This document shows, piece after piece, positions 42,020 to 57,739 of a DNA stretch of 58,428 nucleotides. The notes below the pieces were generated by a model. It was not told the DNA's origin. It made no database searches and worked only from the letters and a program-made list of their open reading frames with translations. A program made the translations under genes and the position numbers. The DNA lies in IMG/VR virus record IMGVR_UViG_3300037634_006328, positions 1 to 58,428 of that record, one strand, 5' to 3'. The stretch is from a virus (Duplodnaviria; Caudoviricetes). Position 1 is the stretch's first letter, and each line of letters begins with the position of its first letter.

Positions 42020-42114
42020 AAGTTCGGTACGATAAGTTTTTTCCTTGTTAAGAAGAAGAAAAGTGCTTGACAAGTTGCGTCAACGTGGTATATTATGAGT
42101 GTAGAAAAGAATTA

Positions 42115-42197
42115 GGCTTCGTGGTTGGAATTGGTATACACGAGACACTCAAAATGTCTTGCCTTCGGGCATGCGGGTTCGACTCCCGCCGAAGTCA
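42115..42197 (+). tRNA. tRNA-Leu(CAA)
   Basis: Acceptor GGCTTCG/CGAAGTC, anticodon arm AGACA-CTCAAAA-TGTCT, long variable arm, GGTTCGACTCC. Confidence 0.92.
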
Positions 42198-42213
42198 CTT
42201 TGAAAGAGGGGAA

Positions 42214-42822
42214 ATGGCTTATATTTTGGCTTTGATGCTGGCGTCTTGCATCACGGATAACGATAAGGATGGCGAACTTGTCGACAGCTTATCATTCGTG
42301 GATAGTGAAATACCGTATGTCGAACCACCAGTGTTTGATACCGCACCATCCGTGATGGACTCGTCTGTGGTTGAATTTGAAGAATGTGTAATTACCGGCC
42401 AGAATATAACAATTGGTTTGTCGCATCAAACCATCTTCGATTACAAAATTCAAATTGAAGGCTGTATCTCTTCTTTGGAGCTTGAAGTGGTCGTGGTCTT
42501 CTATGGTGAGAATTATGCAGGGGATGTGGTTTGTGGCGAAGCTGTTGTGTTTAACTCGGTGGCAACACAGCCTTCAGTACCCTGTAGTTGGTGTGACTTC
42601 GGACACGATGTGGATTTTGCCCCAATACACACAAACTTGTTCCCTCGATGCCCCGGCTTCTCAATCGACGATAACTGGTGGGACGGGATTGGGTACAACC
42701 AAGGCTCCTCTTTGTTGCTCATGGGGGATTACAGTCACCATGATTTATGGGATGCGATTCCGGTCAACGAGACACAGGAGCTTTTCAAAAACAACGCAGT
42801 TCATTTTACTTTCGTTGAATAA
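42214..42822 (+). CDS. putative lipoprotein, Cys-rich and acidic
   Basis: MAYILALMLASC lipobox; true start is after the tRNA (track start 42067 overlaps it). Confidence 0.6.
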   Translation: MAYILALMLASCITDNDKDGELVDSLSFVDSEIPYVEPPVFDTAPSVMDSSVVEFEECVITGQNITIGLSHQTIFDYKIQIEGCISSLELEVVVVFYGENYAGDVVCGEAVVFNSVATQPSVPCSWCDFGHDVDFAPIHTNLFPRCPGFSIDDNWWDGIGYNQGSSLLLMGDYSHHDLWDAIPVNETQELFKNNAVHFTFVE

Positions 42823-42977
42823 AGACAAGACAACTGACAACCCTTTGTTCTGACTGACTATGTACTAGAACATGTTGTGAAAGCCTTCAGAGAATGGCAA
42901 GTAGTATTCAGATCATTGACAACTTAAATAAGTTTTGGAACGTGTGTGAAGGGTGAGATCCGCTTGCCCTTCACTTT

Positions 42978-43046
42978 GCGGGTGCTTCAAGGTGAAGGCT
43001 TTGGTTGCCAATCAGAGATAGGTCAGTTCGATTCTGATCACCCGCT
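42978..43046 (+). tRNA. tRNA-Gly(GCC)
   Basis: GCGGGTG/CACCCGC acceptor, CTTC/GAAG D-stem, loop TTGCCAA, TTCGATT T-loop. Confidence 0.82.
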
Positions 43047-43063
43047 TTTCCGTTGGAGAGTGC

Positions 43064-43342
43064 TTGAATACTAGAAGGTTTAAATTCGAAGAAGGTGAAC
43101 TGATTGTCTTCAGAAAAAAGAAGACCGCGAAGACCATGGTTTCGCTGAACCGGATCGTGACTCACACCGTGCAGGATGGAACATTTCTAATTATTGCCAA
43201 GACTTTCCGCAGACCTCGGGGCTGGTATGGACCGCACACCCGACCAGAAAGGGAAAATTGGTATATCGTCTTCGATCCGAAGACGATAAAAAACCACACA
43301 TTCAGCGAAGAGATTCTTCGCTTTAGCGAGAAACCAAGATGA
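43064..43342 (+). CDS. small KOW/SH3-like hypothetical protein
   Basis: GGAGA RBS with TTG start; FEEGELIV. Confidence 0.5.
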   Translation: MNTRRFKFEEGELIVFRKKKTAKTMVSLNRIVTHTVQDGTFLIIAKTFRRPRGWYGPHTRPERENWYIVFDPKTIKNHTFSEEILRFSEKPR

Positions 43343-43956
43343 AATATCTATTTTTAGATTTTGATGGCGTGATATGCACCGCCAAATCATACAAACAAGG
43401 CGACAAACAATGGCAGAGAGACGGACGCCCTGCCGCATTAGGGCATAAACAAGGTGACAATTACGGCTTCGCCTCTGACTGTCGCGGCGACAGTGCTTAC
43501 AATTGCGGACCCTATCGAATCGACGCAGAGCTTGCAAAAGACGTTCAGAAGATTTGTGACACCCAAGACCAGATCGTAATCGTGCTTTCCACAACGTGGC
43601 GAAGACTTTATGAATTGAAACATCTTCGGATATGGCTCAATGAGAAAGGTATCACTGCACCAATCGTTGGCAGGACGGACCTGTTCTATTTGAAAGAGCT
43701 TGACGAATACGAAAGAGGTCATTTGATTCAGCGTTGGTGCCAGGACAATGGTGTTCCGATTGAGGATATCGTAATCCTTGATGATAATGAGATTCTTGAC
43801 CCTAACGATGAAAGGGGGAGATATCTCCCCATTGCTAGTCAGTTCGTTCATATCAAGAAAGGCTGGTCTTCTGGTGGGATAACCCAGAAGCACATCAATC
43901 AAGCAATTGGGATATTGGAAGGTAACCTATCGCAAGTTAACAAGCAGTTGACTTGA
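43339..43956 (+). CDS. HAD-family protein (Swiss-army-knife RNA-repair type)
   Basis: YLFLDFDGVI, IVLSTTWR, ERG..I..W, IVILDD. Confidence 0.8.
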   Translation: MKYLFLDFDGVICTAKSYKQGDKQWQRDGRPAALGHKQGDNYGFASDCRGDSAYNCGPYRIDAELAKDVQKICDTQDQIVIVLSTTWRRLYELKHLRIWLNEKGITAPIVGRTDLFYLKELDEYERGHLIQRWCQDNGVPIEDIVILDDNEILDPNDERGRYLPIASQFVHIKKGWSSGGITQKHINQAIGILEGNLSQVNKQLT

Positions 43957-44002
43957 CAGATCGCCTCAATCGGATACATTATATGTGTCGAAGGGGATAT
44001 AT

Positions 44003-44073
44003 TGGGATATAGTGTAACGGCAGCACAAGAGACTTTGAATCTCTCGGTTCAGGTTCAAATCCTGATATCCCTT
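44003..44073 (+). tRNA. tRNA-Gln(UUG)
   Basis: AGAGA-CTTTGAA-TCTCT anticodon arm; GGTTCAAATCC. Confidence 0.9.
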
Positions 44074-44081
44074 CTTTTGAG

Positions 44082-44282
44082 GTGCAGGTGAAAGAGCAGG
44101 AACTAACACTTAAGCAAGCCGAAATAATGCTTTCACAATTGAAGATGATGCTTGATCGTCACGAAACTCCCGAAGCTTGGCAGCAATACTATCTCGTGAA
44201 GCAGCTTGCCAGACTTCTTAAAGAAAAGAGCGAATCATGGTTTCAGAAATATGATCGAATCATGGGGGAGAAGAAGCGGTGA
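44082..44282 (+). CDS. hypothetical protein
   Basis: 66-aa ORF with GAGG RBS. Confidence 0.45.
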   Translation: MQVKEQELTLKQAEIMLSQLKMMLDRHETPEAWQQYYLVKQLARLLKEKSESWFQKYDRIMGEKKR

Positions 44283-44407
44283 TATGCGCCTGCGAAGACT
44301 ATGTATATGTAAACCGTTTGTAAAGCCACTTGACAACTGGCGTGAGCGTGATACATTATAGATGTGAAGAGACACATTTTTAAACAACTAGTACAAACAA
44401 TTATTAT

Positions 44408-44768
44408 GGGCCTGAAAGGATTCGACGGGGCAACTAGAAGGAATAGTGCAAGCCGCCAACTGTAACAAAAGGCGTAAACTTCGTTATAAACGCATAACTG
44501 CAAACAACAACAACAACTTCGAAATCGCTCTAGCGGCGTGATCAAGTTCATTCTCTCCTAGAGAGAATGCGGGGCTTCTAAAAGCCTTGTATCCAATTTC
44601 AGATATCAGCTAACCCTGTGAAAATAAAGGTTCAAGGTGCAACAGTCCAGTGAGCACCGGGAATGTACTGGATATTTTGTTAATTGAGGAAACAATTGAC
44701 CATGCTTGTGGATGACTTGAAATTTGAACGGTCTCGGACCCGGCTATCGTATGCCGGCAGGTCCACCA
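44408..44768 (+). ncRNA. ssrA: tmRNA (ssrA) with tag ANNNNNFEIALAA*
   Basis: 5' GGGCCTGAAAGGATTCGACGGGG; 3' CAGGTCCACCA; G3.U alanine identity pair; ATAACT|GCA resume codon at 44500; stop TGA 44539-44541. Confidence 0.93.
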
Positions 44769-44785
44769 TTTTATAAAGAGGGAAT

Positions 44786-45091
44786 ATGGAACAAGAAGCA
44801 ACAATGAAAATGATCGGTGCTGCGTTAACTTTGGCGATCTTTTCTTCGTCCTCGTTGTATCTCATGATGCGCGCACCCGACAAGACTCAATACTATGAGC
44901 CTACGATTCGAAAAGATTTTGTTTGTGGGCACGAGTGGCTTCCCGAACCCATTACAGAGCCGTCGGGCGGCGAGGTCGACTATCCGATCATAACCATCGG
45001 TCTTGACGGCGGGCTCCGTGTAGAGGTATCTCCGGGCGTTACAGTCGATTCTCTCACCGGACAGGTCGACTACAATTTTGAGCGTCGGTGA
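44786..45091 (+). CDS. membrane-anchored hypothetical protein
   Basis: N-terminal hydrophobic helix. Confidence 0.5.
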   Translation: MEQEATMKMIGAALTLAIFSSSSLYLMMRAPDKTQYYEPTIRKDFVCGHEWLPEPITEPSGGEVDYPIITIGLDGGLRVEVSPGVTVDSLTGQVDYNFERR

Positions 45092-45300
45092 ACATCGTGG
45101 GAAGGATCGCTAGTCGTTGGTATCGAACCGATCAAGGTGGGTTCAAAATCCAAGTCATTGATGACGGGAATTTGATTCACTTGAAGTTTGCCGATCAGTA
45201 TACATTCAGCATGGGTAAAAAACAATTCCTTGATTTCTCGGAAATGATTGCGTTTGCTGACAAGGTGGTGTTAAATGAGATCGAATTACCAGAAAGGTGA
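45088..45300 (+). CDS. hypothetical protein
   Basis: GTGA coupling. Confidence 0.45.
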   Translation: MNIVGRIASRWYRTDQGGFKIQVIDDGNLIHLKFADQYTFSMGKKQFLDFSEMIAFADKVVLNEIELPER

Positions 45301-45472
45301 GTTGTTGATTTATCGGCATGTATATAAACAAGATTTCAGGTTTTGTGTATACATAGGTCCTTCGCCTTCAAGCACGTCGCCATCCTCGATTCCACTTTTT
45401 CCTCATAGGGTTTTCTTTATTGATGTTCAGTTGGTTGGGCGCGCCATGGGTGTTGAGTTAACACAACCTTGA
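45275..45472 (+). CDS. small KOW/SH3-like hypothetical protein
   Basis: YQKGELLI; stop lies in a TTGAC box. Confidence 0.45.
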   Translation: MRSNYQKGELLIYRHVYKQDFRFCVYIGPSPSSTSPSSIPLFPHRVFFIDVQLVGRAMGVELTQP

Positions 45473-45521
45473 CTTGACAAACTCGGTCGGCAGGTTACAT
45501 TATAAGTGTAAGAAGAAATAC

Positions 45522-45593
45522 GCCGCTAAAGCATTTATGGTGATGCATTGGTTTTGTAATCCAAAGAATGGAGTTCAAGTCTTCATTGCGGCA
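45522..45593 (+). tRNA. tRNA-Thr(UGU)
   Basis: GCCGC acceptor, GCAT/ATGC D-stem, loop TTTGTAA, GTTCAAGTC; some mismatches. Confidence 0.8.
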
Positions 45594-45628
45594 TAGACGG
45601 CACATGAACCAGAGAGGGTGTCTAAATT

Positions 45629-45865
45629 ATGGTAAAGAGTTTGTACACCAAGGGCGATCTTGTTCAGCATTATCTTTTTCGTTCGTTCGGGATTGTGGTT
45701 GATAGTCGAAGGACTGCCAGTCTAAGACTGGAGTATAGGGAATATAAAGTATTCTGGCTAAACCCCTCTCCAGTGTTGAAAGAACAGACACAATTGCGGT
45801 GGATTGATAGAAGTGCTATTGAATTAGTAGAAATAGAAAATGGTCCGACGAGGGGGGAGGAGTGA
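45629..45865 (+). CDS. small KOW/SH3-like hypothetical protein
   Basis: YTKGDLVQ...FGIVV...YKVFW. Confidence 0.55.
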   Translation: MVKSLYTKGDLVQHYLFRSFGIVVDSRRTASLRLEYREYKVFWLNPSPVLKEQTQLRWIDRSAIELVEIENGPTRGEE

Positions 45866-46068
45866 CTGAAAAGGATATTGGCTCTTTATATACAATATCG
45901 GGCGATTTTGCGATCTTAACGGGCTTTCGATGGATAGAAGGTCTTGAAGGTGAGTTTGCAACGTTTTTTATGATTGCTCCTAAAATTAAGTGGTACTATG
46001 TTAATGGACTTATGGATTTCGCCGTGGCACGCTTTGACGGCTTTGACGACATCGAAAAGCTTGCTTGA
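45862..46068 (+). CDS. hypothetical protein
   Basis: Coupled ORF; stop lies in a TTGACA box. Confidence 0.5.
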   Translation: MTEKDIGSLYTISGDFAILTGFRWIEGLEGEFATFFMIAPKIKWYYVNGLMDFAVARFDGFDDIEKLA

Positions 46069-46108
46069 CAGCCCCCTGACTTGACAAAACGATTCGATAG
46101 GTTACATT

Positions 46109-46402
46109 ATGAAGAAAGAAGATATCAAGTTGGGAGTCCTTCTAGTATCCTATATAGCTTCAGATTCGCGCCCACAGTATTCGGTGGTGGTAAAAGAGAA
46201 TGTTGATATTCCAAAATGGTCAAGCCATGACTGTCAACATGTGAATTTATATTTCCTTCATTCTCGTATGACGAAAACTTGGCCGATAAAATCCATTTTG
46301 AAAGAAAATACTTCTTCTTTTAGGGTTTTTTATTTGCCCAGTGAAATAAATAGTTGCGGGCCTATAGCTCAATTGGCAGAGCACCGGACTCTTAATCCGT
46401 AG
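46109..46402 (+). CDS. hypothetical protein (3' end overlaps tRNA-Lys)
   Basis: IKLGVLLV motif; start abuts the -10 box, so it is uncertain. Confidence 0.35.
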   Translation: MKKEDIKLGVLLVSYIASDSRPQYSVVVKENVDIPKWSSHDCQHVNLYFLHSRMTKTWPIKSILKENTSSFRVFYLPSEINSCGPIAQLAEHRTLNP

Positions 46403-46430
46403 GTTCTAGGTTCGATTCCTAGTGGGCCCA
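46358..46430 (+). tRNA. tRNA-Lys(CUU)
   Basis: GGGCCTA/TGGGCCC, AGCTCAATTGGCAGAGC, loop CTCTTAA, GGTTCGATTCC. Confidence 0.95.
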
Positions 46431-46462
46431 CACTTTTTTCTTAACTTGGGAAGAGAGACAAA

Positions 46463-46720
46463 ATGTCTTACATAATTGAATACTACTTCGCAAAAGAAGG
46501 TCCAGGTCTGATCCCTGGTTGGTATCGAAGTTCATTGTTCGATACATACAAAGAGGCGAAAGAGGATTTCGAAAGATTGAGGGGTAATCCCTCGGTATAT
46601 AAATATAGGCTTCGCAATACGGAGACTAACAAGATTAGGGGGGAATTTGAACACCCAGATCTGAACAAGTCCAAGCCTGTACGAAAGAAGCGTAAATATA
46701 CGCGAAAAAAGAAGACTTGA
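46463..46720 (+). CDS. hypothetical protein with basic C-terminus
   Basis: RBS; stop lies in a TTGACA box. Confidence 0.55.
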   Translation: MSYIIEYYFAKEGPGLIPGWYRSSLFDTYKEAKEDFERLRGNPSVYKYRLRNTETNKIRGEFEHPDLNKSKPVRKKRKYTRKKKT

Positions 46721-46769
46721 CAACCCCTTGACTTGACAAAACACGTCATTAGGTTACATTATTATATAT

Positions 46770-46843
46770 GCGCGGTTAGCATAACTGAATAATGCCTTCG
46801 GCTTCTACCCGAAATCATGGGGGTTTGAATCCCTCACCGCGTA
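46770..46843 (+). tRNA. tRNA-Arg(UCU)
   Basis: GCGCGGT/ACCGCGT, TTCGG-CTTCTAC-CCGAA, GGTTTGAATCC. Confidence 0.88.
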
Positions 46844-46933
46844 CTTTAATCAGAAGGCGACTTGAAGGTTGATGTGTTTAAGCATCTTTTCAAGACCCGC
46901 GAATCTCATTTGAATTTACTGGAGGATCATACA

Positions 46934-47309
46934 ATGAAAGGGAAAGATTTTTTACGAGGCTCGTGAACGTGCATTAAATAACGATCACGGATTCCATATC
47001 GCGGCTATTCTATATCGGAGGGGTAAACCTGTGACAATCTCGGTTAACTCATGGAAGCAGAAACCAAAGTATTTCCGATACTATTCCAAGGCTACTCGCC
47101 CTGGGCGAGCATATTGCCAACACGCAGAAATGAGCGCACTGGAGTCTGCAAAGCCTGGAGACAAGATCGAAGTCATACGCTTCAGGTGTGATGGTTCAAT
47201 TGGTTGTGCCAAACCCTGTCCGCATTGCGAGAAGCGTTTGCGAAAGCTGAACATCCGTGTCAGGTATACAAATCATGATGGAGAGTGGGAGTGGTTGACA
47301 ACCTCTTGA
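46934..47309 (+). CDS. cytidine/dCMP deaminase-like protein, frameshifted near its start
   Basis: HAE and AKPCPHC zinc motifs. The deaminase-like N-terminus (YEARERAL..HIAAIL) is open upstream of 47031, but the GGAGG+ATG at 46934 is one base out of frame. Confidence 0.7.
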
Positions 47310-47610
47310 CAGAGTCTTGACTTGACTTTTCGGTCCAGCATGATACATTATATGTGTAGAAAAGAGGAAGAGAAAGAAATGTTCACAGTATTCGGTTCGG
47401 TAATGGGCGTAGTTGGTACCATTTTCTTTGCGTCTGAAGTCAAGGCAAAGCATGCCTGTCGTTGCGATAAAGGTGAATGATGGCTTGGGTTATTTATGTT
47501 TGCCTTGACTGTAAGCGTGAATATGATCGCGAATGGTCAGATAGCTGGAAACGTGATATGAAGAGTCACGGATTGTGCGGCAAGTGTGCAGATAAGAGGG
47601 GTTTGAGGTA

Positions 47611-47778
47611 ATGAAGCCATTGCGCGGCGATTTGTTTTACTCTGAATATTCAGTTTTTTATATCTATCTCGGGCAGACTCGTTCAAAAATGTTCTTTTGG
47701 CGAATCAACGGCCATGGTAGTAGTAAGTTTCGCAATTTCACTCACCACTATGTCAAAAGACACATGACCCACGCTTAA
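47611..47778 (+). CDS. 55-aa KOW-like hypothetical protein (not in ORF track)
   Basis: GAGG RBS; LRGDLFY..YIYLG. Confidence 0.4.
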   Translation: MKPLRGDLFYSEYSVFYIYLGQTRSKMFFWRINGHGSSKFRNFTHHYVKRHMTHA

Positions 47779-47873
47779 AACGAATTGTCAACTGATCGTC
47801 AAGCCGCTTGTCAAGGCGGGAGGATCGGTTACATTATAAGGGTAAGAACAAGAAAGAAAAAACTCTTACCACA

Positions 47874-47948
47874 GGGACTGTAGAGAATTGGTATATCGCT
47901 CCGACTTAAAATCGGAGGTCATTGTGGGTTCGAATCCCACCAGTCCCA
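47874..47948 (+). tRNA. tRNA-Leu(UAA) with short variable region
   Basis: GGGACTG/CAGTCCC, TCCGA-CTTAAAA-TCGGA, 7-nt variable region, GGTTCGAATCC. Confidence 0.88.
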
Positions 47949-47967
47949 CTTTAAAAGAAGGGAAACA

Positions 47968-48594
47968 ATGAGGATTTGCCTCATATCAGACACACACCAG
48001 ACACACCCAGACGTTGACAAATTCCCCGATGCAGACTTGCTTCTGCATTGCGGTGATGCCACGAAGAATGGGTGCGCGCAGGAATTCATTGCTTTCAACA
48101 AATGGCTGATCACTTTGAAGCAGAAGTTCCCGCATATCATTTTCACCCCTGGGAATCACGATCTTCTTTTCGAAGACAATGAAGGGTTTGCGCGCTCGCT
48201 TGTTCAAGATGCAGAGATTCTAATCGGTGAAACCACAATGTTCCAGGGTCTTCGGATTCATGGGTTCCCGTGGGTTCCAAAGTTCTACAATTGGGCGTTC
48301 ATGCAAACGTCGACGAGTCGAAAGGTCTCGACATCGGAGATTCCAGAGTGTGATGTTCTGATGACCCATGGCCCACCTTACGGCATTGGCGACGTTGCAA
48401 AGAACTTTTCGAATACCGGCTGCCCATGGCTTCTGCAAAGGGTTGAAAAGCTTCAGCCAAAGTTGCATGTATATGGTCATATCCATGAGTGCCACGGTCA
48501 AACGATTGAGATCGGTGGAACCAAGTTTATCAATGCGGCACAAATGGATCGACACCATCGACCATTGTTTGAGCCAATCGTTGTGGAGATCTGA
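47968..48594 (+). CDS. metallophosphoesterase (calcineurin-like)
   Basis: ISDTH, HCGD, PGNHD, THGPP, GHIHE. Confidence 0.92.
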   Translation: MRICLISDTHQTHPDVDKFPDADLLLHCGDATKNGCAQEFIAFNKWLITLKQKFPHIIFTPGNHDLLFEDNEGFARSLVQDAEILIGETTMFQGLRIHGFPWVPKFYNWAFMQTSTSRKVSTSEIPECDVLMTHGPPYGIGDVAKNFSNTGCPWLLQRVEKLQPKLHVYGHIHECHGQTIEIGGTKFINAAQMDRHHRPLFEPIVVEI

Positions 48595-48800
48595 TGAATG
48601 AAGATGAAATTGCATTCATCGTGTGTGTGGTGTTTGCCGTCACATTGGTGGTATGCTGCATGTCTGCGTATAACAGTGGCAGTAATAGTGCTTCCGCACT
48701 CGTGTGCTCGCAGTATTGTGATACCACCGGAGCAAAGTATGACTTTGTTGAAAACCGGTGCGTATGCATCACAATTACTGAAAAGTTTCAGGGAGAATAG
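48594..48800 (+). CDS. small membrane-anchored Cys-rich protein
   Basis: TM helix followed by C-x3-C...C-x-C. Confidence 0.45.
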   Translation: MNEDEIAFIVCVVFAVTLVVCCMSAYNSGSNSASALVCSQYCDTTGAKYDFVENRCVCITITEKFQGE

Positions 48801-49061
48801 AGAAGAAAACGCAAAGTCGCTTGACATTTTGTGACAGGCGGTTACATTATGTGCATGAAGAAAGAATACAAAATCTATGACAACATCGGGAATCTGATTG
48901 AAATCGGTTCAACCGTCGTTTTCGCGAATGATGGCGCTGTTGAAATAGATCGAGTTTCTGAATTCAGTGGGCGTTCATCGCTGTCAAGAATCGAGAAACA
49001 GAATTTGTGACCAATCGTATATTGGTCTACGAAATATAAAACACACAAAGGAAAAAGAAAT

Positions 49062-49262
49062 ATGTCTCAACCAAAAACAGTCCCTATTTGGGAGTTAGCA
49101 GTCACCGTCAAACAGGGGGAAGGACTTCATACTACGAAGTATCTTGTCGCTGCCGAAGATAAGAGAGAGATTCAGAGGTTTGTTCAAGCAAATCATGGCG
49201 AGCAGTCCCAATGGTCCGCCGATCCAAAGACTGTTTACGAACTTCGCCGCGAGCATCTTTGA
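49062..49262 (+). CDS. hypothetical protein
   Basis: AAGGA RBS. Confidence 0.5.
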   Translation: MSQPKTVPIWELAVTVKQGEGLHTTKYLVAAEDKREIQRFVQANHGEQSQWSADPKTVYELRREHL

Positions 49263-49511
49263 TGAGGTCTTAGCACTCTCTTGACTTGACAAAAGTGCTC
49301 GGCAGGTTACATTATAGGTAGAAAAAGGGGGATAGTTGAACGAAAAGCCGATTTATTTTGAGGATCTGTATCTGAACGAACCCGTATATGGTTTCGATTT
49401 GGACTATGACGTTCCTTGTTTTGATGAAGATGATGGTGAAGAGTATGAAGGATGTCCCTGGGATATCCCCGAAGACCTTCCGTTTTAAGAAGTTACGATC
49501 ACGTTAGCATA

Positions 49512-49700
49512 TTTGATTATTAATGGACCGGGGAGGAAAGGTATTATAGCCGTTCAAAGAACCTAATCGAACGGAATCGCATTCTTAATATATTTACGGA
49601 ATGCATATAGCCACCCACCTTGGCTAATAAAAAGGTGGAGTTGAAGGTGGTTCTAGGGTATATCGCTGAAAACAGATATGCCTTCCCGGTCTTAATCAAA
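49512..49700 (+). ncRNA. candidate structured ncRNA (about 190 nt, multi-hairpin, possible pseudoknots)
   Basis: Terminal stems TTTGATTA/TAATCAAA and GACCGGGGAGG/CCTTCCCGGTC enclose four hairpins. Confidence 0.55.
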
Positions 49701-49709
49701 GAAAAGACG

Positions 49710-49913
49710 ATGTCACTCCACCCAGCGCCATATGAAAAAGGCCAATTACTTAGGTTTAAACTACCTACGCATACAGATAGGAACATAACGCTGGTTGTAC
49801 TTGAAATAAATTTGTGGACACCAACCACTGCGACCATTCACGCATATTGTATCGAATCCGGCACCGCCGCAACATATCAGTTGCGACGAAGTAGCATCAT
49901 AGGTGAATCATGA
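49710..49913 (+). CDS. small KOW/SH3-like hypothetical protein
   Basis: YEKGQLLR; likely start ATG 49710, after the structured region. Confidence 0.45.
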   Translation: MSLHPAPYEKGQLLRFKLPTHTDRNITLVVLEINLWTPTTATIHAYCIESGTAATYQLRRSSIIGES

Positions 49914-50076
49914 TAATGAATAAGAAGAACACCCTTGACACCTCTGGTGCTCGGGGTATTGCTAGGCAGGAACACTTTGCCTCTGGTGGGAGTATTGCCG
50001 AATGGCGGGGCAAACACGTTGTACATAGTTCCGCAAAGAACTACAAGCGAAATCCAAAACATCGCACTAAACGAGA

Positions 50077-50295
50077 ATGGTAAAACCTCATTTGTTAATT
50101 GGCGAAGTAGTCCGGCTAAAGTATGTGGGTGCATCTGTTTATGGCATCGTGATTAGTTGTTCAGACATGAACGATTGCTCAAAAGTGCTAAGGGTATATT
50201 GGCTCCCCTCTAAGGAGTCCACCCCAGACCTAGAAGCATTGAAACGTCAGCGATTTATTGCTTCGAATTATGTTGAATTCTGTGACAAGGCTTGA
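50077..50295 (+). CDS. small KOW/SH3-like hypothetical protein
   Basis: LLIGEVVR...YGIVI...RVYW; stop lies in a TTGACA box. Confidence 0.5.
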   Translation: MVKPHLLIGEVVRLKYVGASVYGIVISCSDMNDCSKVLRVYWLPSKESTPDLEALKRQRFIASNYVEFCDKA

Positions 50296-50361
50296 CATTT
50301 TGTTGACTTGACAAAACCTCTCATCATGTTACATTATAGGTGTAAAAAGGAGAAAGAAAAC

Positions 50362-51075
50362 ATGTCTTACCCTACGTTATCCGCTCGCGGGCGCAAGCTC
50401 ATCGCTGAAGGTCTTCTCGCCCGATTGGATGCCGTCCGCACCAGCACCGCCGCCACGTCGCGGGATCGAGCCTTTCTTGATTCCCTCTTCGAAAACGCTA
50501 AGATTTGGGGTAACCTGTCCCCGAAGCAATACGCGGCGTTGGAAAGGGTTGAACAGCGTATTGAGACCCGTACTTTTGCACACAATGATCATGATGCTTG
50601 GATGACCGAGTGGGATAGCGAGAAGGCCGAACTATTCAGTCTTTTCCTTTCCTACGCATCCTCGACCAAACCTAGTGGTGCCATGAACCGCGCACCCATT
50701 GAATACTATGGTCGCTTCCTGTCTCTAGTGAAAGCTGACGAGAACTTCATTCCCACTCGTGGGCAATTCTCAAAGTATACAGGTAACCTCTACTTTCAGC
50801 GTGCTCTGGCGGAATACCGCCGATCACCTAAATTTGCTATTAACGGCGCTGTAACCTTTCGGTCAACGGCTAATTCTCGCTGCGATGCATATGCTGCATG
50901 TCGCCGCGCCCATGTGGGCACCAAGATTGTTGGGATGGTTACCGAGATTGATCCTTGCTTTCCACGCACCAGTGTCAAAGGTAGCAAAACCTATCGCGTG
51001 GTATTCCCGCAACTTATGAAGCAGTTTATTGTTGAAGAGCGTTGGCTTAAGCTTTCCTCTCGCAAAAAGTCTTGA
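50362..51075 (+). CDS. hypothetical early protein
   Basis: Promoter module plus AAGGAG RBS; FL.SL.......LS.KQ...L motif common in phage proteins. Confidence 0.65.
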   Translation: MSYPTLSARGRKLIAEGLLARLDAVRTSTAATSRDRAFLDSLFENAKIWGNLSPKQYAALERVEQRIETRTFAHNDHDAWMTEWDSEKAELFSLFLSYASSTKPSGAMNRAPIEYYGRFLSLVKADENFIPTRGQFSKYTGNLYFQRALAEYRRSPKFAINGAVTFRSTANSRCDAYAACRRAHVGTKIVGMVTEIDPCFPRTSVKGSKTYRVVFPQLMKQFIVEERWLKLSSRKKS

Positions 51076-51155
51076 CACTCTCTTAACAAAATAAGCCTCG
51101 ACAAAACCCGACAGCGTGATACATTATATGTGTAAGAACGAAAGAGGAAAAGAAC

Positions 51156-51314
51156 ATGGATGACTTCCACAGGGTTCAGGACATCGCGCACGGAGGCTAC
51201 AGGTGCCCTTGCTGCGGGCCTAAGCCTTCCGACCGACCCAAGGCTCGGCGTACTGCTCGACGCCGCCTGAAGGCTGTCACGCGCCGTATCATCCGTGATC
51301 AGATCGAGGACTGA
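51156..51314 (+). CDS. 52-aa basic CPCC protein (not in ORF track)
   Basis: MDDFHRVQDIAHGGYRCPCCGPKPSDRPKARRTARRRLK...; directly after a promoter module and GAGG RBS. Confidence 0.6.
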   Translation: MDDFHRVQDIAHGGYRCPCCGPKPSDRPKARRTARRRLKAVTRRIIRDQIED

Positions 51315-51318
51315 AGAA

Positions 51319-51573
51319 ATGAAGTTTGCTGCAACATTTGAAATCGATTTTGAGTTGGAAATGTCTGTTGCGACAACAACCTTTGTCGCCGAACAGATCA
51401 TGGGTTCCGAAACTTACCAGATTGGTACCGAACTCTTGGGTTTGGTCTCTGGTAATGGAATTAAGCTTGGCAGGCCCACCGCCGCTGACCAAAACATGAT
51501 TCTCCTTTGGGGAGTCCCTGGTTTCCGCGAATGGATGATGGATGCTGCGGCCCACATCGACCCACAAGGCTGA
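51319..51573 (+). CDS. hypothetical protein
   Basis: Follows the 52-aa ORF; GAGG RBS. Confidence 0.5.
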   Translation: MKFAATFEIDFELEMSVATTTFVAEQIMGSETYQIGTELLGLVSGNGIKLGRPTAADQNMILLWGVPGFREWMMDAAAHIDPQG

Positions 51574-51696
51574 CAACACTTGACAAACCCTTGACTTGAC
51601 AAATCACCCTGCGATGTTACATTATAAGGGTAAGAAACAAAAGGGCCGGTTGACCCATTCAACCACTTGATTAAAAACAGTCAAATGGAGGGCAAT

Positions 51697-51927
51697 ATGC
51701 CCCGCAAGAAGACCGAATCTACTTTCACCATTGGTCAGGCCGTTCGCCACCGGGTACCGAACTTCTGCGCATGCATCGCCGAAGATGAGAGCGTGTGGGC
51801 TAGTGGCACCGTGACCGCGCTCGGGACGCACGGAAAAGGTGGGAAGACCGTTACTGTCAAGTGGGCCGATGGTATTGAGCGCAAGTTCACCGCGAGCTTC
51901 GTGATTCCCGCTGTCGAAGCTAACTGA
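51697..51927 (+). CDS. small KOW/SH3-like hypothetical protein
   Basis: GGAGG RBS; FTIGQAVR...GTV...VTVKW. Confidence 0.6.
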   Translation: MPRKKTESTFTIGQAVRHRVPNFCACIAEDESVWASGTVTALGTHGKGGKTVTVKWADGIERKFTASFVIPAVEAN

Positions 51928-51934
51928 AGCCTCT

Positions 51935-52285
51935 AAAGCTAGGGCAAGAACAAATATGTCCCGAAAACACCCTCTGTCCGATTTCAGGTGAAACTCCTGC
52001 CCCAAATATCAATATGCTCACCACCAACATAGGGTCCGAGAAATTACTTTACAGCTCATTTTGAGTGAGTGCCTTCGTTATAAGCTTAGCGGCTAAGAGG
52101 GTTAACTGGATTATGTAAAAGTATCACCCGTGAGCGGGTCGCGCTAATGATGTTGGAAAATGTAGTACCAGACGTGAATGAACGTTGAGCGTAAACGTTG
52201 CATCAGACTTGGTGTTGAGGGTGAACGCGCCCTTCAACTTTAACTACACAGCCGCTGGCACACCGGTTAAAGTGTGCCACCTTTT
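51935..52285 (+). ncRNA. candidate large structured ncRNA (about 350 nt)
   Basis: No credible ORF; several 7-bp long-range helices and local hairpins; ends in a hairpin plus T run. Confidence 0.55.
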
Positions 52286-52386
52286 ATCGCGCCTGTCACT
52301 TTTCTTGACACTCTCTTAACGAAATAAGCCTCGACAAACCACGCCAGCGTGATACATTATATGTGTAAAAAGAAAAGGGGAAAAAC

Positions 52387-53046
52387 ATGAGTTGGAACGG
52401 GACCGTTCGATGCTCGCACTGTGGACAACGTGGACATAACAAACGCGGCTGCTCGGTGTTGAAGGAATGGGTTGCCGAACGGCGCATTACCCACGGCGAC
52501 AATGACTATTACGTTGCCAGCGCTGATCGCAAAGCCGCTAGTGCCAAAACAAGACAATGCTCGTTCTGCCGAGAAACCGGGCATAATCGCCGTGGCTGCA
52601 AGACTCTCAAGTCTGCGAAGATCGCTGCAAAGACTAGGCTTCACACAAATCGCCAATTCCTTTTAGGTTGGGTCACTGCGAACGCAACAAGTTTTCCTGG
52701 TGTTGGTAATATTGCCTTTTGCCCTTGGGCTAAGAAGCCATACGTGATCACTGGCATCGACTGGGGGGTATTTGATAATCTTGAGCGCGATGCCACTGAC
52801 ACAGATGTGCAAGCATATTTTGCGGATAACGACCTTCATTACTATCGGGAGATCTTCATCGGGAAAAGGATAGGAGACTTTCGTAGGACTGAAAGGTTCA
52901 GTGCAGTACAACTCGCTAGAACATCGAGCGATCTCAAGGGTTTTGTTCCCAAACCGCCAGCAGACCTGTTGACTGATGCCGCCTTGGCCACCATTGTTGA
53001 CGGACACTTTGCAAAACACGGAAGATGGTTCCATGGATATCGTTGA
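52387..53046 (+). CDS. double CCHC zinc-knuckle protein
   Basis: CSHCGQRGHNKRGC and CSFCRETGHNRRGC. Confidence 0.75.
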   Translation: MSWNGTVRCSHCGQRGHNKRGCSVLKEWVAERRITHGDNDYYVASADRKAASAKTRQCSFCRETGHNRRGCKTLKSAKIAAKTRLHTNRQFLLGWVTANATSFPGVGNIAFCPWAKKPYVITGIDWGVFDNLERDATDTDVQAYFADNDLHYYREIFIGKRIGDFRRTERFSAVQLARTSSDLKGFVPKPPADLLTDAALATIVDGHFAKHGRWFHGYR

Positions 53047-53229
53047 CGACCTCTTGACAAGATAATCCTCGACAAACGCTGGCAGCGTGATACATTATAT
53101 GTGTAGAAAAGATAGGAGTTCGATGCGCCCCCAGCCCGATTATGCCTTTTGGTTTTTGTGTATCGCTTGGGTATTCATATCCTTTTGGCTATATTATAGT
53201 CTGTTCCCCCTATTTGGCGGACCCTGATA

Positions 53230-53424
53230 ATGAAAGACAGTGAATCGTTCGAAGATAAAGTGGCTGATTACAGCGATTTCATGCTTCGTTCTTTTCTGAA
53301 TGATATGATGTTCGCTCCTATCGACGCCTCCGATCCAATCGAGTGTAAAGCAATTCAGCAAGCATTCGAAAACCTTGCCAATATTGATTGGTACGCATAT
53401 TTCAACGAAGAAGAGGGAAAATGA
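53230..53424 (+). CDS. hypothetical protein
   Basis: ATGA coupling to the next ORF. Confidence 0.45.
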   Translation: MKDSESFEDKVADYSDFMLRSFLNDMMFAPIDASDPIECKAIQQAFENLANIDWYAYFNEEEGK

Positions 53425-53666
53425 AAGTATTTACCGTAACCAAAGATGATGGAATCTTCCATCCAGTGATCGTTGCAGTCTATTCAGACTTCCACGAAGC
53501 CAATACTCATGTGAAGTTCTTGCGCTCAAAGCACAAGGTATCAAAGATCTCTGTCTCTGCGCAGCATTCTGTGAAGTTCAGTGTCGATACATACGATGTG
53601 TCGCCAAAGTTCGACAATGAAGACGCCCGAACGATTTGGGTTGATCCTCTCCGCGCCATGCGTTGA
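53421..53666 (+). CDS. hypothetical protein
   Basis: GAGGG RBS; stop lies in a TTGACA box. Confidence 0.5.
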   Translation: MKVFTVTKDDGIFHPVIVAVYSDFHEANTHVKFLRSKHKVSKISVSAQHSVKFSVDTYDVSPKFDNEDARTIWVDPLRAMR

Positions 53667-53883
53667 CAAACACTTGACAAGATAAGAGTCGACAAACGTT
53701 GTCAACGTGATACATTATATGTGTAGAAAGGAAAATAAAATGTCCACGCCTCGGTTGGCTAAATTCGAAATCAGTTTGATCATTTGTCTCATCATCTTAG
53801 GACTTTGGGTGACCGGTCTTGTGGCTTGGGGCGCGTGATGGAATTGGAAATTGGTTTTCTCAAAGAAGTAAAGGATTAAAACA

Positions 53884-54084
53884 ATGGCAATCTGGCAATT
53901 CATGCAGCGGTGCATGTTGGACCGCGTGCAAAACCCAGCCTACCGAAAGGGTCAGGCATTCATGAATCTCCTGAAGGAGTTTCGCCCAGACTTGGCCGAT
54001 GCAATGCATTCGACCGATCTTGATTGTTCCTGTGTGGATGAACGGTATGATGCTGCCCTCACCTATGTTCGAAAGAACTGGTGA
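53884..54084 (+). CDS. hypothetical protein
   Basis: R.GQAFMN.L...RPDLA motif typical of small phage proteins. Confidence 0.6.
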   Translation: MAIWQFMQRCMLDRVQNPAYRKGQAFMNLLKEFRPDLADAMHSTDLDCSCVDERYDAALTYVRKNW

Positions 54085-54182
54085 ACGGCAACGGAACGCT
54101 TGACAATCACTTGACAACTTAGTGGTCGACAAACCACGTCAGCGTGATACATTATATGTGTAAGAACGAAAAGGAAAACAAC

Positions 54183-54395
54183 ATGTCCGCCAACCTGCCG
54201 ACCGTGATTCTCTGGGCCGATGCCGTCCAAACCTTCGAAACCGACATGCTTCCGGCGCTTATCGAAGCCTATAGTGCTGACGATACCGTTGCATTCAGCG
54301 AGGCTTGGAACGACTGGACCGACTCCTTGTGCAAGGATGGTCAGATCTCTGATTGGCAGTATGCGAACTGGTCGCATCCCGCTTGCTGCGGTTGA
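54183..54395 (+). CDS. hypothetical protein
   Basis: EAWNDWTDSLCKDGQISDWQY.NW motif; stop lies in a TTGACA box. Confidence 0.65.
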   Translation: MSANLPTVILWADAVQTFETDMLPALIEAYSADDTVAFSEAWNDWTDSLCKDGQISDWQYANWSHPACCG

Positions 54396-54572
54396 CAAAC
54401 GCTTGACAACTTGGTGGTTGACAAACCACCCCAGCGTGATACATTATATATGCGAGACGGGGAAAGAAAAAGATGCCCCGCCCCTCGCAGACAAACACTT
54501 GACAACTTAGCACTTGCGTAACCGCCTCAATCGGTTACATTATAGATAGACGAAAAAGAAAAGGAACAAAAC

Positions 54573-55700
54573 ATGGCTGTCAACTTTACCGAATTCTCCG
54601 CTACCGCACCCTTCGTTGTGGATGCGCGATTCCCGGTTCTTATCCGTGGTCGACACGGAATCGGTAAATCTAGCGTTGTGTATCAGTATGCATCGACTGT
54701 CGGCCTTCCGGTTGTGGAACGACGTGCTTCCCAAATGACCGAAGGGGATCTCTTGGGAATCCCTGCAAAGGACGGAAAAGATGTCAACGGCACGATCGCC
54801 AGTGTCTTCGCCCCGTTTGAATGGCTTGTCAGGGCTTGTACTGAACCGGTGGTCCTCTTCCTTGACGAAGTGGACCGCGCCGTAACCGAGGTTCGACAGG
54901 GGCTTTTCGAGCTTTGTGACTCTCGCAAGATCGCAGGCTGGACCCTGCACCCTGATACCATCGTGTTCGCTGCGATCAACGGTGGCGAGCATGGCGCGCA
55001 ATACCAAGTCAATGCAATGGATCCGGCTGAACTCGATCGATACACCGTCTTTGACGTGGAACCGACCGTTGAGGAATGGTGTAGCTATGCCACTGACGCC
55101 TGCGACAGCGCAATCGTGGCGTTCATCCGGAACTTTCCAACACATTTGGAACACTTCGATGAATTCGAGCCGAACAAGGTTTACCCCTCTCGCCGTTCGT
55201 GGTGCCGATTCAATGATGCAATCGTGCGGCACGGCCTTCTGGCTGATGCCAAAGCGAACCGTGCAACGATTTCCCGCCTTGCAACTGCCTTTCTCGGCAT
55301 TGAGGCGTCCGTCAAATTCGTTGACTTCGTTGTCAATTACGATCGTCAGGTCTCTGCTGCGGATATCATCGAGAAGGGTCGTTTTGACCGTCTCGCCGAC
55401 TTTGAGCAGACTGACCATATGTCGGTTGTCGATGCGATCATTTCTGGTGGATACACTTCTTCGAAATTGGAAGGTTCGAACCTTCAGAACTTCGTTGATT
55501 ACCTTGTCAACTATCTTCCAGCCGAATGCGCTATGACTCTCTGGACTTCGGTTGTTGGTAATGCTGATACCCCACAGGACGTGATGACTCATAACATGGT
55601 CAACATTCAACGCAGCGTTGCATCGCCGATGAACGGTCAGCCTGGAATCACTTTTCAGAAGTGGTGCCTTGAGGTCATTCCGACCGACAACGATAGCTGA
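54573..55700 (+). CDS. AAA+ ATPase (MoxR/AAA_5-like)
   Basis: GRHGIGKS, LFLDEVDRA, MDPAELDRY, PSRRSW. Confidence 0.88.
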   Translation: MAVNFTEFSATAPFVVDARFPVLIRGRHGIGKSSVVYQYASTVGLPVVERRASQMTEGDLLGIPAKDGKDVNGTIASVFAPFEWLVRACTEPVVLFLDEVDRAVTEVRQGLFELCDSRKIAGWTLHPDTIVFAAINGGEHGAQYQVNAMDPAELDRYTVFDVEPTVEEWCSYATDACDSAIVAFIRNFPTHLEHFDEFEPNKVYPSRRSWCRFNDAIVRHGLLADAKANRATISRLATAFLGIEASVKFVDFVVNYDRQVSAADIIEKGRFDRLADFEQTDHMSVVDAIISGGYTSSKLEGSNLQNFVDYLVNYLPAECAMTLWTSVVGNADTPQDVMTHNMVNIQRSVASPMNGQPGITFQKWCLEVIPTDNDS

Positions 55701-55751
55701 TAGGGACGTCAATGGGTGCTGGCTTTCTGTCAGCCCCACACTTATCTTTTT

Positions 55752-55826
55752 GGGAATGTGGCCAAGTTGGTAAAGGCACCCGTCTTATAAGCAGGAGATA
55801 CGTGGGTTCAAACCCCACCATTCCCA
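55752..55826 (+). tRNA. tRNA-Ile(UAU)
   Basis: GGGAATG/CATTCCC, GCC..GGC D-stem, loop CTTATAA, GGTTCAAACCC; one mismatch in the anticodon stem. Confidence 0.82.
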
Positions 55827-55846
55827 CTCTAAAACAATGGTATGCA

Positions 55847-56062
55847 ATGAGAACCCCTGCACAGCGGTGCATTGAAGAATACGAGAAATATAAACACATT
55901 GTAATATCGGAAGGTCTTTATACTAACGCTAGTGGAGTTCAGTATCGAATTTCTGACGTTGACAACGAGAGAGGGACCGCAGTGACAACCTCATTGCTGA
56001 ACAACTATGAACTAAGGCGGACCCTACATTGGTGCCGGAAGAATCTAAAGAGAGTGGGATAG
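55847..56062 (+). CDS. hypothetical protein
   Basis: Start placed after the tRNA. Confidence 0.45.
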   Translation: MRTPAQRCIEEYEKYKHIVISEGLYTNASGVQYRISDVDNERGTAVTTSLLNNYELRRTLHWCRKNLKRVG

Positions 56063-56084
56063 AACATGCAATGCGAGACTACTT

Positions 56085-56312
56085 ATGAATGAAATGAAGG
56101 ATCCCGAAGATACGCCAGACATTGCCTCCGAAGTAATGCGAACGTTGGAAGATCAACAGAGAGAACTCCTTGAGATTCAGGCGGCATATGAAACTGCTGT
56201 CAAAGAGACTAGTTCAGAGTTGAACATGTTGCATATTCACGCTTGGCACGTTTGGGCGCTACTTCTTGAAACGCGCCTACCGCCGCAAAGTATCTATCCG
56301 GCTATGGCATAG
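56085..56312 (+). CDS. hypothetical protein
   Basis: Late-type motif at 56078. Confidence 0.45.
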   Translation: MNEMKDPEDTPDIASEVMRTLEDQQRELLEIQAAYETAVKETSSELNMLHIHAWHVWALLLETRLPPQSIYPAMA

Positions 56313-56319
56313 TGAAGTA

Positions 56320-56538
56320 ATGAAGTTGAAGTTTGATCAGATGGAGTTTGAAATAGGGGAATTAATAACCCTTAGATCTCATGATCCTGCAACCTTGCAT
56401 GGCATTGTTTTGAGTGAACCGTGGACGGACCATAATAATGAGGTCCGTGTCACGGTTTTTATCGTTGAAAAAAGGGAAGAATGGATACCATACATTCAAT
56501 CTATAAAGAAAATCAAGGGCTACGAAAATGAAGCTTGA
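56320..56538 (+). CDS. small KOW/SH3-like hypothetical protein
   Basis: FEIGELIT...HGIVL...VTVF. Confidence 0.5.
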   Translation: MKLKFDQMEFEIGELITLRSHDPATLHGIVLSEPWTDHNNEVRVTVFIVEKREEWIPYIQSIKKIKGYENEA

Positions 56539-56746
56539 TGTCGGACAATTGGTGACCACTACTTACAAACACAAGCCCCGCATTCGATATTTCATCGTTA
56601 TCGATCCGCTGGTGCCGCCCGACATCAACGCAGGAAGACCCCATTACATGACTCGCGTTTATTCAGTTTCAAGCTCCATTTTCTGTTATATCCCCGTTCA
56701 GTACGTTGTTCCTGTGCTTTCGTCCGCTTCGTCCACAGCCCTGTAA
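56528..56746 (+). CDS. small KOW/SH3-like hypothetical protein
   Basis: LDVGQLVT. Confidence 0.45.
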   Translation: MKLDVGQLVTTTYKHKPRIRYFIVIDPLVPPDINAGRPHYMTRVYSVSSSIFCYIPVQYVVPVLSSASSTAL

Positions 56747-56965
56747 GCGACCCGTGGCAGCCGCCCCTAGCTCGTCCATGCCAGGACACCCGCGAGCCGC
56801 TAGGACGCCAGCACGACCCCGTGACGGGCGCTACAGAGCCTGCCCCGCCTTCCCGAGACCTGACACCGACCACCAGCCCGAGACCAACCTGTAAAGAGGT
56901 TGTCAAGAGGGTTGACAAGTGCGGTCATCGTGATACATTATGAGTAGGAAAAGGGGAGAACTTTT

Positions 56966-57637
56966 ATGAAGTACAGCGCATCCAACGCCATGTCTCGCGC
57001 AGCCCTGATCGGCGAAATGCGTGCAGTGCTCGAAAAGGCAGGTTTCGCCAAACTTCCCGACGAAACTCGCCGAACCAGACATGGCCGGACCTTCCAGATC
57101 GAAGATCGATATGTCCGCAGCATTGACGAGAAGCGTCGTGTCATTGTGTACACGTCGATCGCAAACAACGACATTCGCAAGAAGGGTGCCGATGCCATTC
57201 GGATCCTTTCGCAGTTGAGTATTGAAGGGGACTTCGATCGCGTTGTTTGTCTGTCTAAGGAGTCCCGTGTCAATCGTGTGGGAAAGGTCAAGGCAATCGC
57301 TGGTCGTATGATCGACCGTATGCGGAATGTATGGGGCGAGACCATAAAGCTGGGGAGTTGCCCCCATTGTAATACCACCATGGCCCTTTCAAAGCAGGGT
57401 AAGGCGTTCTGCGCTATCCGCTGTTGGCTCCGAAAAGAAGTCCAGATGCCGAACATTGGTCAGATGATTGTTTCCGAATGGGGCGATGATCGTCCGGCAG
57501 AGTACGCAATTATTCAAGGCGTGCGAATCAGCAAAGATTTCACGAACTACGATATCAGAACATTCAAAGTTCGGGAGCAAATTCAAACCTCTTGGTATTC
57601 TCTCGCGACTCTCCATCGGATGCGCCGCATTGTGTAA
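56966..57637 (+). CDS. hypothetical protein with Zn ribbon and a KOW-like tail
   Basis: CPHC...CAIRC, then MPNIGQMIV; follows a promoter module and GGGGAG RBS. Confidence 0.6.
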   Translation: MKYSASNAMSRAALIGEMRAVLEKAGFAKLPDETRRTRHGRTFQIEDRYVRSIDEKRRVIVYTSIANNDIRKKGADAIRILSQLSIEGDFDRVVCLSKESRVNRVGKVKAIAGRMIDRMRNVWGETIKLGSCPHCNTTMALSKQGKAFCAIRCWLRKEVQMPNIGQMIVSEWGDDRPAEYAIIQGVRISKDFTNYDIRTFKVREQIQTSWYSLATLHRMRRIV

Positions 57638-57739
57638 ACGGTTTGTCAAGGCATGGCGATCGTCGTTGACAAACCGTGTCAGCGTGATACATTATATGTG
57701 TAAGAAGAAAAGAAAAAACCCTTTTTTAAGGAAAGCGAA

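Follow-up and report, generated by a model that had tools for sequence, protein, structure and literature searches.

A stable and conserved RNA structure between small early cistrons of an uncultured marine phage, a possible translational leader

An unusually stable, nucleotide-conserved RNA structure that matches no Rfam family was identified at positions 49512-49700 of a 58,428-bp IMG/VR virus record (the window, that is, the whole stretch of DNA analysed). The structure is read from the + strand, lies between two cistrons of an early operon, and holds an SD sequence and a GUG start codon inside one of its hairpins, P4. We favour the reading of this element as a lineage-specific cis-acting leader controlling translation of a small three-gene module, a tentative choice to which we would give close to an even chance; it includes that the small frame ORF-B is translated from position 49647 and that the fold limits initiation there, both of which we infer. 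This reading may be weakened by the doubtful gene status of ORF-B, by the single variant lineage available, and by the marginal outcome of a max-gap scan (see below).

Genomic setting and architecture of the element

The record has an estimated completeness of ~32%, and the proteins encoded in the window include a DnaB-like helicase, a ribonucleotide reductase, a DnaE-type DNA polymerase and GroEL. The source is an uncultured marine phage with a DNA genome, which carries the DnaE-type polymerase, the DnaB helicase and the ribonucleotide reductase. The DNA polymerase has 571 relatives in IMG/VR, of which the best 80 show 60-66% identity, and among GenBank phages no polymerase exceeds 31% identity. 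Parts of the region 48000-51000 are present in 20 DNA sequencing runs from 13 studies, 18 of them labelled as marine or seawater metagenomes, one as aquatic and one as freshwater; no RNA run figures among the listed runs with parts of this region.

Seven tRNAs (ARAGORN and Rfam) and one tmRNA (Rfam, gathering thresholds) are found in the window. The tmRNA, at 44408-44768, scores 76.3 bits with Rfam, and ARAGORN reported the seven tRNAs but no tmRNA. The 42-58 kb portion is of early type and contains ~18 sigma-70-like promoter modules that are near-identical, spanning 42060-57720, each composed of CTTGACA, a spacer of 16-18 nt and TACATTAT, and each with a tRNA, the tmRNA or some small ORFs downstream of it. 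Many of the modules have one or two additional TTGACA-like direct repeats upstream, and copies of the module are also present on other contigs of two sequencing runs, X3 and X8. ARAGORN, Rfam and the promoter modules thus confirm what the initial annotation had proposed from the letters of the DNA, that the element lies in a tRNA/tmRNA region downstream of a promoter module at 49286.

The unit containing the element runs from this module to the next one at 50307-50337, and all genes in this region are on the + strand. The element lies ~190 nt inside this early polycistronic unit, between ORF-A and ORF-B, unlike most of the tRNAs and the tmRNA of the window, which are found ~20-50 nt from a promoter. 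No terminator-like site was found in 48500-51200. The features of the unit are as follows.

49285-49315, + strand: early sigma-70-like promoter module, driving the unit that contains the element
49336-49488, + strand: ORF-A, 50 aa, very acidic, TTG start and strong SD, first cistron
49512-49700, + strand: whole structured element, 189 nt, five-way junction closed by P0 and P1
49513-49534, + strand: 5' strands of the clamp (P0 49513-19, 5-nt bulge UUAAU, P1 49525-34)
49535-49549, + strand: purine-rich junction GGAAAGGUAUUAUAG, unpaired in the model
49550-49574, + strand: hairpin P2, 6 bp (49550-55/49569-74), with a 13-nt loop containing AGAACC
49579-49604, + strand: hairpin P3, 7+3 bp (49579-88/49594-604)
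49609-49652, + strand: hairpin P4, with the anti-SD-like CCACCU (49615-20) in its 5' strand, and AGGUGG (49633-38) and GUG (49647-49) in its 3' strand
49647-49913, + strand: ORF-B, 88 aa from GUG 49647, gene status uncertain
49657-49682, + strand: hairpin P5, 8 bp (49657-64/49675-82)
49683-49699, + strand: 3' strands of the clamp (P1 49683-92, P0 49693-99), within the likely coding region of ORF-B
49777-49932, + strand: substitution hot spot, with 13 of the 23 differences of contig L092 in 156 nt (P = 6.5e-6)
49910-50083, + strand: ORF-C, 57 aa, SD AGGUGA
50077-50295, + strand: ORF-D, 72 aa, called as a gene on 7 contigs, last cistron before the 50307-50337 module

ORF-A has a coding score of +3.3, with strongly negative values in the remaining frames, an SD pairing of -10.7 kcal/mol, and two natural changes, both synonymous. 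It has no relatives in IMG/VR and no match in Pfam or PHROG. Small acidic early proteins are sometimes DNA mimics.

In the MFE model, P0 (49513-19/49693-99, 7 bp) and P1 (49525-34/49683-92, 10 bp with two G-U pairs) form the clamp that closes the junction. The element has an MFE of -62.2 kcal/mol on the + strand, compared with -41.95 +/- 3.73 kcal/mol for shuffled sequences, and none of 200 dinucleotide shuffles was as good; by the folding z-score (-5.43), one of the measures on which the initial annotation had staked its proposal, the element is not like shuffled sequence. Among 925 windows of 189 nt on the + strand, the lowest GC-corrected MFE is found at 49519, and the exact element lies 4.0 sd below the GC regression, ahead of the windows over the tmRNA. 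The duplex of the P0+P1 clamp (-28.2 kcal/mol) is equalled at none of 1997 other sampled positions. The fold is unchanged in a 321-nt context, with pair probabilities of ~1.0 for P0, P1 and P3, 0.9 for P5 and ~0.63 for P2 (P2/P4 range 0.6-0.7), and the next 90 nt beyond the element, to 49790, are unstructured (z 0.0). The - strand is 13.5 kcal/mol weaker (z -3.25) because 8 of the 56 pairs are G-U, and the signal is therefore that of an RNA read from the + strand.

The stems and all the complementarities listed in the initial annotation are present at the positions it had given them. Of its four hairpins, P2, P3 and P5 belong to the MFE model, whereas the short TAGCCA/TGGCTA hairpin has a pair probability of 0.005, being out-competed by the longer nested hairpin P4 (49609-49652). 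The helices that it had described as closing stem and last hairpin, here P1 and P5, both exist, but in the form proposed they overlap at 49681-82. Support for its two pseudoknots does not rise above chance: the CCACCT/AGGTGG pairing is instead an alternative register of the P4 hairpin, and the complementarity between AGAACC and GGTTCT turns up in 11% of cases when the unpaired residues are permuted. Sterically, an H-type pseudoknot around P4 would be plausible.

Other features were observed elsewhere in the window. The 247 nt between a promoter module and tRNA-Lys (46111-46357) contain no ORF passing the coding score, and their fold is not unusual (z -1.05). A predicted 70-aa ORF (45088-45300) contains 16 nt (45137-45152) that match the T-arm region of two phage tRNAs, and a tRNA is called there by neither ARAGORN nor Rfam. 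At 15855-16961, five copies of the RBS-like repeat GGGAGAGCGAAGAATGA are evenly spaced, 251-323 nt apart, which suggests a tandem family of small paralogous genes. The TTG start of a 255-aa ORF (50308-51075) falls within a promoter module; the recorded form of this ORF begins at ATG 50362 (237 aa), and its only relatives are in its own 97% cluster.

Natural variants and the search for relatives

Four runs were examined for natural variants, two of which (X7 and X8) have no cover over the element. Run X3 provides a single contig across 49000-50300 with 26 differences and no indels, and a JGI contig of 1016 nt (L092) covers 49288-50303 with 23 differences; as 19 of the differences are common to both, the two represent one lineage. 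None of the 189 positions of the element differs in X3 or L092, compared with 26 of 1112 flanking positions in X3 and 23 of 827 in L092. At the flank rate, the probability of finding no difference in the pre-specified 189 nt is 0.011 (X3) and 0.0048 (L092), and a max-gap scan run without regard to the prior coordinates yields marginal values of 0.096 and 0.032, respectively. The stretch without any difference in X3 or L092 extends over 49453-49702. In run X10 (depth 2.5) the sole change seen inside the element is A49676G, which converts a U-A pair of P5 to U-G, is synonymous, and weakens the fold by just 0.6 kcal/mol. All three variants differ at position 49703, so the conservation ends at most 3 nt past the 3' end of P0. 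The substitution hot spot at 49777-49932 shows no third-position bias in the frames checked; it may have been acquired by recombination with a more distant relative, or could reflect relaxed or diversifying selection. From these sequences, and within one lineage, the element appears clearly more constrained than its surroundings.

The initial annotation had not recognised the family of the RNA, and our searches agree: there is no Rfam match, either at gathering thresholds or at E up to 10. A search of the whole window against Rfam 15 (4227 families) at gathering thresholds returned only the seven tRNAs and the tmRNA. With E up to 10, 601 nt around the element gave one minus-strand match of 13 bits, and 208 nt gave two matches of 9-11 bits, to be compared with thresholds of 44-55. 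No match to 49300-49920 was obtained by blastn in distant mode among 50,697 GenBank phage records, and a pattern of the P1 stem found one chance match in IMG/VR, on the high-GC contig L002. A covariance model derived from the element's one sequence detected no paralogue in the 58-kb window, where the element is single-copy, and no copy in five large related records. In 37 further related records, which were length-selected, plus the two closest, from the best 80 of the 571 polymerase relatives, it gave only one partial match (42 nt, 12 bits). With filters off, nothing above 11.6 bits was found by this model in 88 kb of tRNA regions from three relatives.

A two-anchor pattern found four matches in JGI metagenomes, one being the identical copy in L092 and three being due to chance, and three matches in GTDB genomes, all by chance and at most 14 bits. 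Searches anchored on neighbouring proteins gave no relative and no syntenic locus in IMG/VR for the 255-aa ORF, an ATPase, ORF-A or ORF-B, and no relative in JGI metagenomes for a 66-aa ORF; a phosphoesterase anchor led to one locus at 28% identity, in an unrelated 412-kb contig. We found no description of the element in Rfam, by a full-text search of the literature, or in the abstract and outline of Fremin et al. 2023 (PMC10690425), who screened IMG/VR for structured RNAs and whose supplementary tables list 10,006 candidates.

Several known RNAs and signals were considered for this locus and rejected. Neither ARAGORN nor Rfam calls a tRNA or tmRNA at 49512-49700. In tRNA and tmRNA the T arm adjoins the 3' strand of the acceptor stem; the element has no T arm, and the 17 nt preceding P0's 3' strand are taken up by the 3' strand of P1, with no hairpin, so it is neither a tRNA, nor a tmRNA, nor a tRNA with an insertion. 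Bacterial RNase P RNA was considered for the purine-rich junction GGGGAGGAAAGG. RNase P RNA has a P4 pseudoknot whose 3' strand is flanked by those of P2 and P1, and in the element the 3' strands of P1 and P0 adjoin directly, with 0 nt separating them; at E up to 10, the element gives no score with any RNase P model. The complementary loops are a point of resemblance to phi29-type packaging RNA, which belongs to an unrelated phage type and gave no Rfam match. A group I intron, a retron ncRNA and an IS110 bridge RNA were also discarded, with no Rfam match and no adjoining reverse transcriptase or recombinase gene, as was a T4-style late promoter inside the element, there being no repeated promoter-like motif definable in 1-42 kb.

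The ORF-B frame and the explanations of the element

The ORF-B frame is open from 49611, its TGA overlapping the ATG of ORF-C (ATGA); besides GUG 49647, in-frame starts are found at 49620, 49635, 49641 and ATG 49710. Coding scores come from a three-periodic Markov model, for which 36 long ORFs of the window served as the training set. In the ORF-B frame, 49620-49709 scores +4.01. Among stop-free windows, 0.4% of 237 antisense and 0.6% of 343 out-of-frame ones reach this value, and 34% of 394 true in-frame windows do so. The preceding part of the element (49512-49619) has a negative coding score in all three frames, and 49710-49913 scores -0.5. The SD pairing of GUG 49647 is -8.5 kcal/mol, compared with a mean of -4.2 kcal/mol for 1000 random positions and with -1.3 kcal/mol for ATG 49710, which has essentially no SD. 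AGGUGG stands 8 nt before GUG 49647 in an A-rich context, resembling other RBSs of this phage.

Both natural substitutions in 49620-49709 are synonymous and at third positions, and the 11 natural changes in 49710-49913 are distributed 2:5:4 over first, second and third codon positions (6 codons changed non-synonymously and 3 synonymously). In neighbouring ORFs 12 of 15 changes are at third positions (Fisher P = 0.043 against 49710-49913), and the last 45 codons of ORF-B evolve almost neutrally. ORF-B, in any form, is absent from a set of 5.8 billion clustered proteins and has no gene call on record, unlike ORF-D and two other small neighbours, which are on record in that set. No homologue of ORF-B was found among 1.84 billion representatives, and its AF2 model is uninformative (mean pLDDT 44). 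Conserved coding across 49620-49709 had been named in the initial annotation as evidence against an RNA gene; the coding-like score and the SD/GUG are indeed found there, but ORF-B has no homologues, and for this reason the objection applies only in part. The chances that ORF-B is a translated, fast-evolving orphan, with its first 18 codons inside the fold, are about even. ORF-C and ORF-D are better conserved than ORF-B, and show purifying selection in the variants.

Under the leader reading, transcription from the module at 49285-49315 would traverse ORF-A first, and the intercistronic leader of ~135 nt, together with the first ~18 codons of ORF-B, would then fold into the five-way junction. 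P4 would pair the anti-SD-like CCACCU with the SD AGGUGG and the GUG start at 49647, and the 17-bp long-range clamp P0+P1 would join codons 13-18 of ORF-B to the leader's 5' edge. In this way the fold would set the frequency or timing of ribosome starts on ORF-B and also, through the ATGA and overlapping junctions, the translation of ORF-C and ORF-D. Candidate triggers for opening are co-transcriptional timing as in MS2, a protein, a ligand, temperature or nuclease processing. Opening the initiation region at 49647 is predicted to cost 10.45 kcal/mol, a sequestration that is not extreme, as it ranks only 12 of 51 when compared with 50 other gene starts (mean 8.35, sd 3.13 kcal/mol). A conserved regulator before a nearly neutral ORF-B would be odd, so that ORF-C and ORF-D are needed as the real targets.

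The initial annotation had proposed a novel structured ncRNA, such as a ribozyme or a sponge. The structure itself is real, stable and conserved, but its being a free-standing ncRNA, a ribozyme or a sponge found no support of its own. A free-standing RNA of ~190 nt, co-transcribed with the early genes, cut at the P0/P1 stalk and acting in trans, with ORF-B as a chance frame, is nevertheless the chief rival reading, if a doubtful one; decoy, sponge, protein partner and anti-defence RNA are possible roles. Its compact and self-contained fold with paired 5' and 3' ends and exceptional stability, and a conservation that ceases at most 3 nt from the 3' terminus of P0 (49703 being variable), are what such an RNA would show, and so are the 200 nt downstream, which look unconstrained and are unstructured (z 0.0). 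ORF-B also lacks a gene call on record and homologues, and stable RNAs in this tRNA/tmRNA region come from mixed transcripts. However, a chance frame fits poorly with the coding-like score of 49620-49709 in the sole open frame (P about 0.005), with an SD and GUG inside P4 that match the style of the other RBSs of the phage, and with a 97-codon frame ending exactly in an ATGA overlap with ORF-C. Moreover, the element is not directly behind a promoter, as most of the tRNAs and the tmRNA are, no terminator-like site was found (48500-51200), and neither a second copy nor a homologue turned up in the collections searched. That the element represents a new class, an excised five-way-junction phage RNA of ~190 nt acting in trans in host takeover, with ORF-B spurious or secondary, seems to us unlikely. 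Such an excised RNA could hold an H-type pseudoknot formed by UAGCCA/UGGCUA and CCACCU/AGGUGG with a 1-nt loop and an A-rich 6-nt loop, and might be, for example, a decoy for host RNA-targeting defence or for the ribosomal anti-SD.

Phage T7 early mRNAs have intergenic RNase III sites in which two stems flank an asymmetric internal loop, and a site of this type comprises about two turns of dsRNA with the asymmetric loop. The element could act similarly as an intercistronic processing or stability element, the stalk being cut in an RNase III-type manner or the fold blocking exonucleases and RNase E, and its effect would then be on how long the early transcript's upstream and downstream halves last (their half-lives) rather than on initiation as such. 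This we regard as improbable. The moderate sequestration of the RBS agrees with it, as does a clamp stronger than at all 1997 other positions and placed between cistrons of an early unit. A P0 of 7 bp and P1 of 10 bp with a one-sided 5-nt bulge fit the size of an RNase III site, and the P0/P1 helix is capped by a four-hairpin junction rather than a loop. Against this reading, four conserved inner hairpins exceed what a stalk needs; the 3' strand of the stalk is in a probable coding region, and a cut would therefore destroy the ORF-B mRNA; and this is the sole such element among the ~18 promoter units of the region.

It is quite improbable that the element has no dedicated function, the structure being a by-product of drift and the conservation an accident of sampling. 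The single variant lineage, its max-gap values (P = 0.096 for X3 and 0.032 for L092) and the absence of homologues even in 42 related records would suit such an origin, which is however difficult to reconcile with a z of -5.43 (0/200 shuffles), the top position among 925 windows, ahead of those over the tmRNA, a clamp matched at 0/1997 positions, and zero changes in a pre-specified 189 nt beside 13 changes in 156 nt. A DNA-level element, for instance an inverted repeat bound by a protein or a miniature inverted-repeat transposable element, is a very remote alternative. The ends do form an imperfect inverted repeat of ~20-25 nt, and the - strand also beats its shuffles (z -3.25), but the 8 G-U pairs and the + strand more stable by 13.5 kcal/mol speak for RNA, the 58-kb record has one copy and the 42 related records none, and all matches of the two-anchor pattern in GTDB genomes were due to chance. 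A miniature inverted-repeat transposable element in particular was rejected, as the inverted ends are present but there is a single copy and no target-site duplication is visible at the borders.

Significance and comparison with known systems

The interpretation depends on the translation of ORF-B, and the candidate is genuine and well defined within a single lineage. If the leader reading is true, this phage would tune an early gene module by RNA folding, a lineage-specific device of modest general interest. A discrete stable RNA would matter more. To our knowledge the functions of the non-tRNA small RNAs of phage tRNA regions are still poorly known, and this uncultured marine lineage, whose polymerase has 571 relatives in IMG/VR, would then have a candidate open to testing. 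One sequence and two near-identical variants cannot seed an RNA family.

The tRNA region of phage T4 encodes small stable RNAs of unknown function, derived from a mixed precursor transcript. The element resembles these, by description only, in being a structured RNA among phage tRNA genes, and differs from them in overlapping a probable translation start. With SD-containing translational riboswitches it shares a multi-helix junction, a terminal helix, and an SD paired inside the fold at the initiation region. A riboswitch is defined by a ligand and by an aptamer conserved across many loci. Unlike in riboswitches, the closing helices of the element run 54 nt into the probable CDS; there is no Rfam riboswitch match at E up to 10, and no homologues were found, hence no conserved ligand pocket can be defined.

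According to PMC6733600, the full-length mRNAs of type I toxin-antitoxin systems are translationally inert through long-range 5'-3' pairing and SD sequestration. The element is similar to what is described there in its long-distance clamp, its SD-masking hairpin and a small ORF that would stay silent until remodelling or processing, whereas ORF-B is no short hydrophobic peptide and the context is that of a phage early operon.

In MS2, as described in PMC4615214, the hairpins of the maturation-gene 5' UTR form a cloverleaf; a long-distance pairing closes it and hides the SD, and the gene can be translated only in the short time before folding is complete. In the Levivirus maturation leader, the RBS can also pair with downstream sequence (PMC4615214). 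The MS2 leader is at the 5' end of an RNA-phage genome, whereas the element is internal and intercistronic in the mRNA of a DNA phage, and its long-range clamp joins the leader to codons 13-18, the SD being held in a local hairpin. Indeed, the anti-SD and SD of the element are 13-18 nt apart in the same hairpin, and the long-range helix does not include the SD. There is no sequence relationship to the MS2 leader, and the element falls outside the Levivirus class and the resemblance is functional only, the kinetic trap being a feature of MS2. The two have in common, on the same account (PMC4615214), hairpins enclosed by a long-range pairing, an upstream tract that pairs with the SD, and phage control in cis of one cistron. 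Leader folds that mask an RBS are already known, and the element, read as a leader, is a further example of these rather than a new class.
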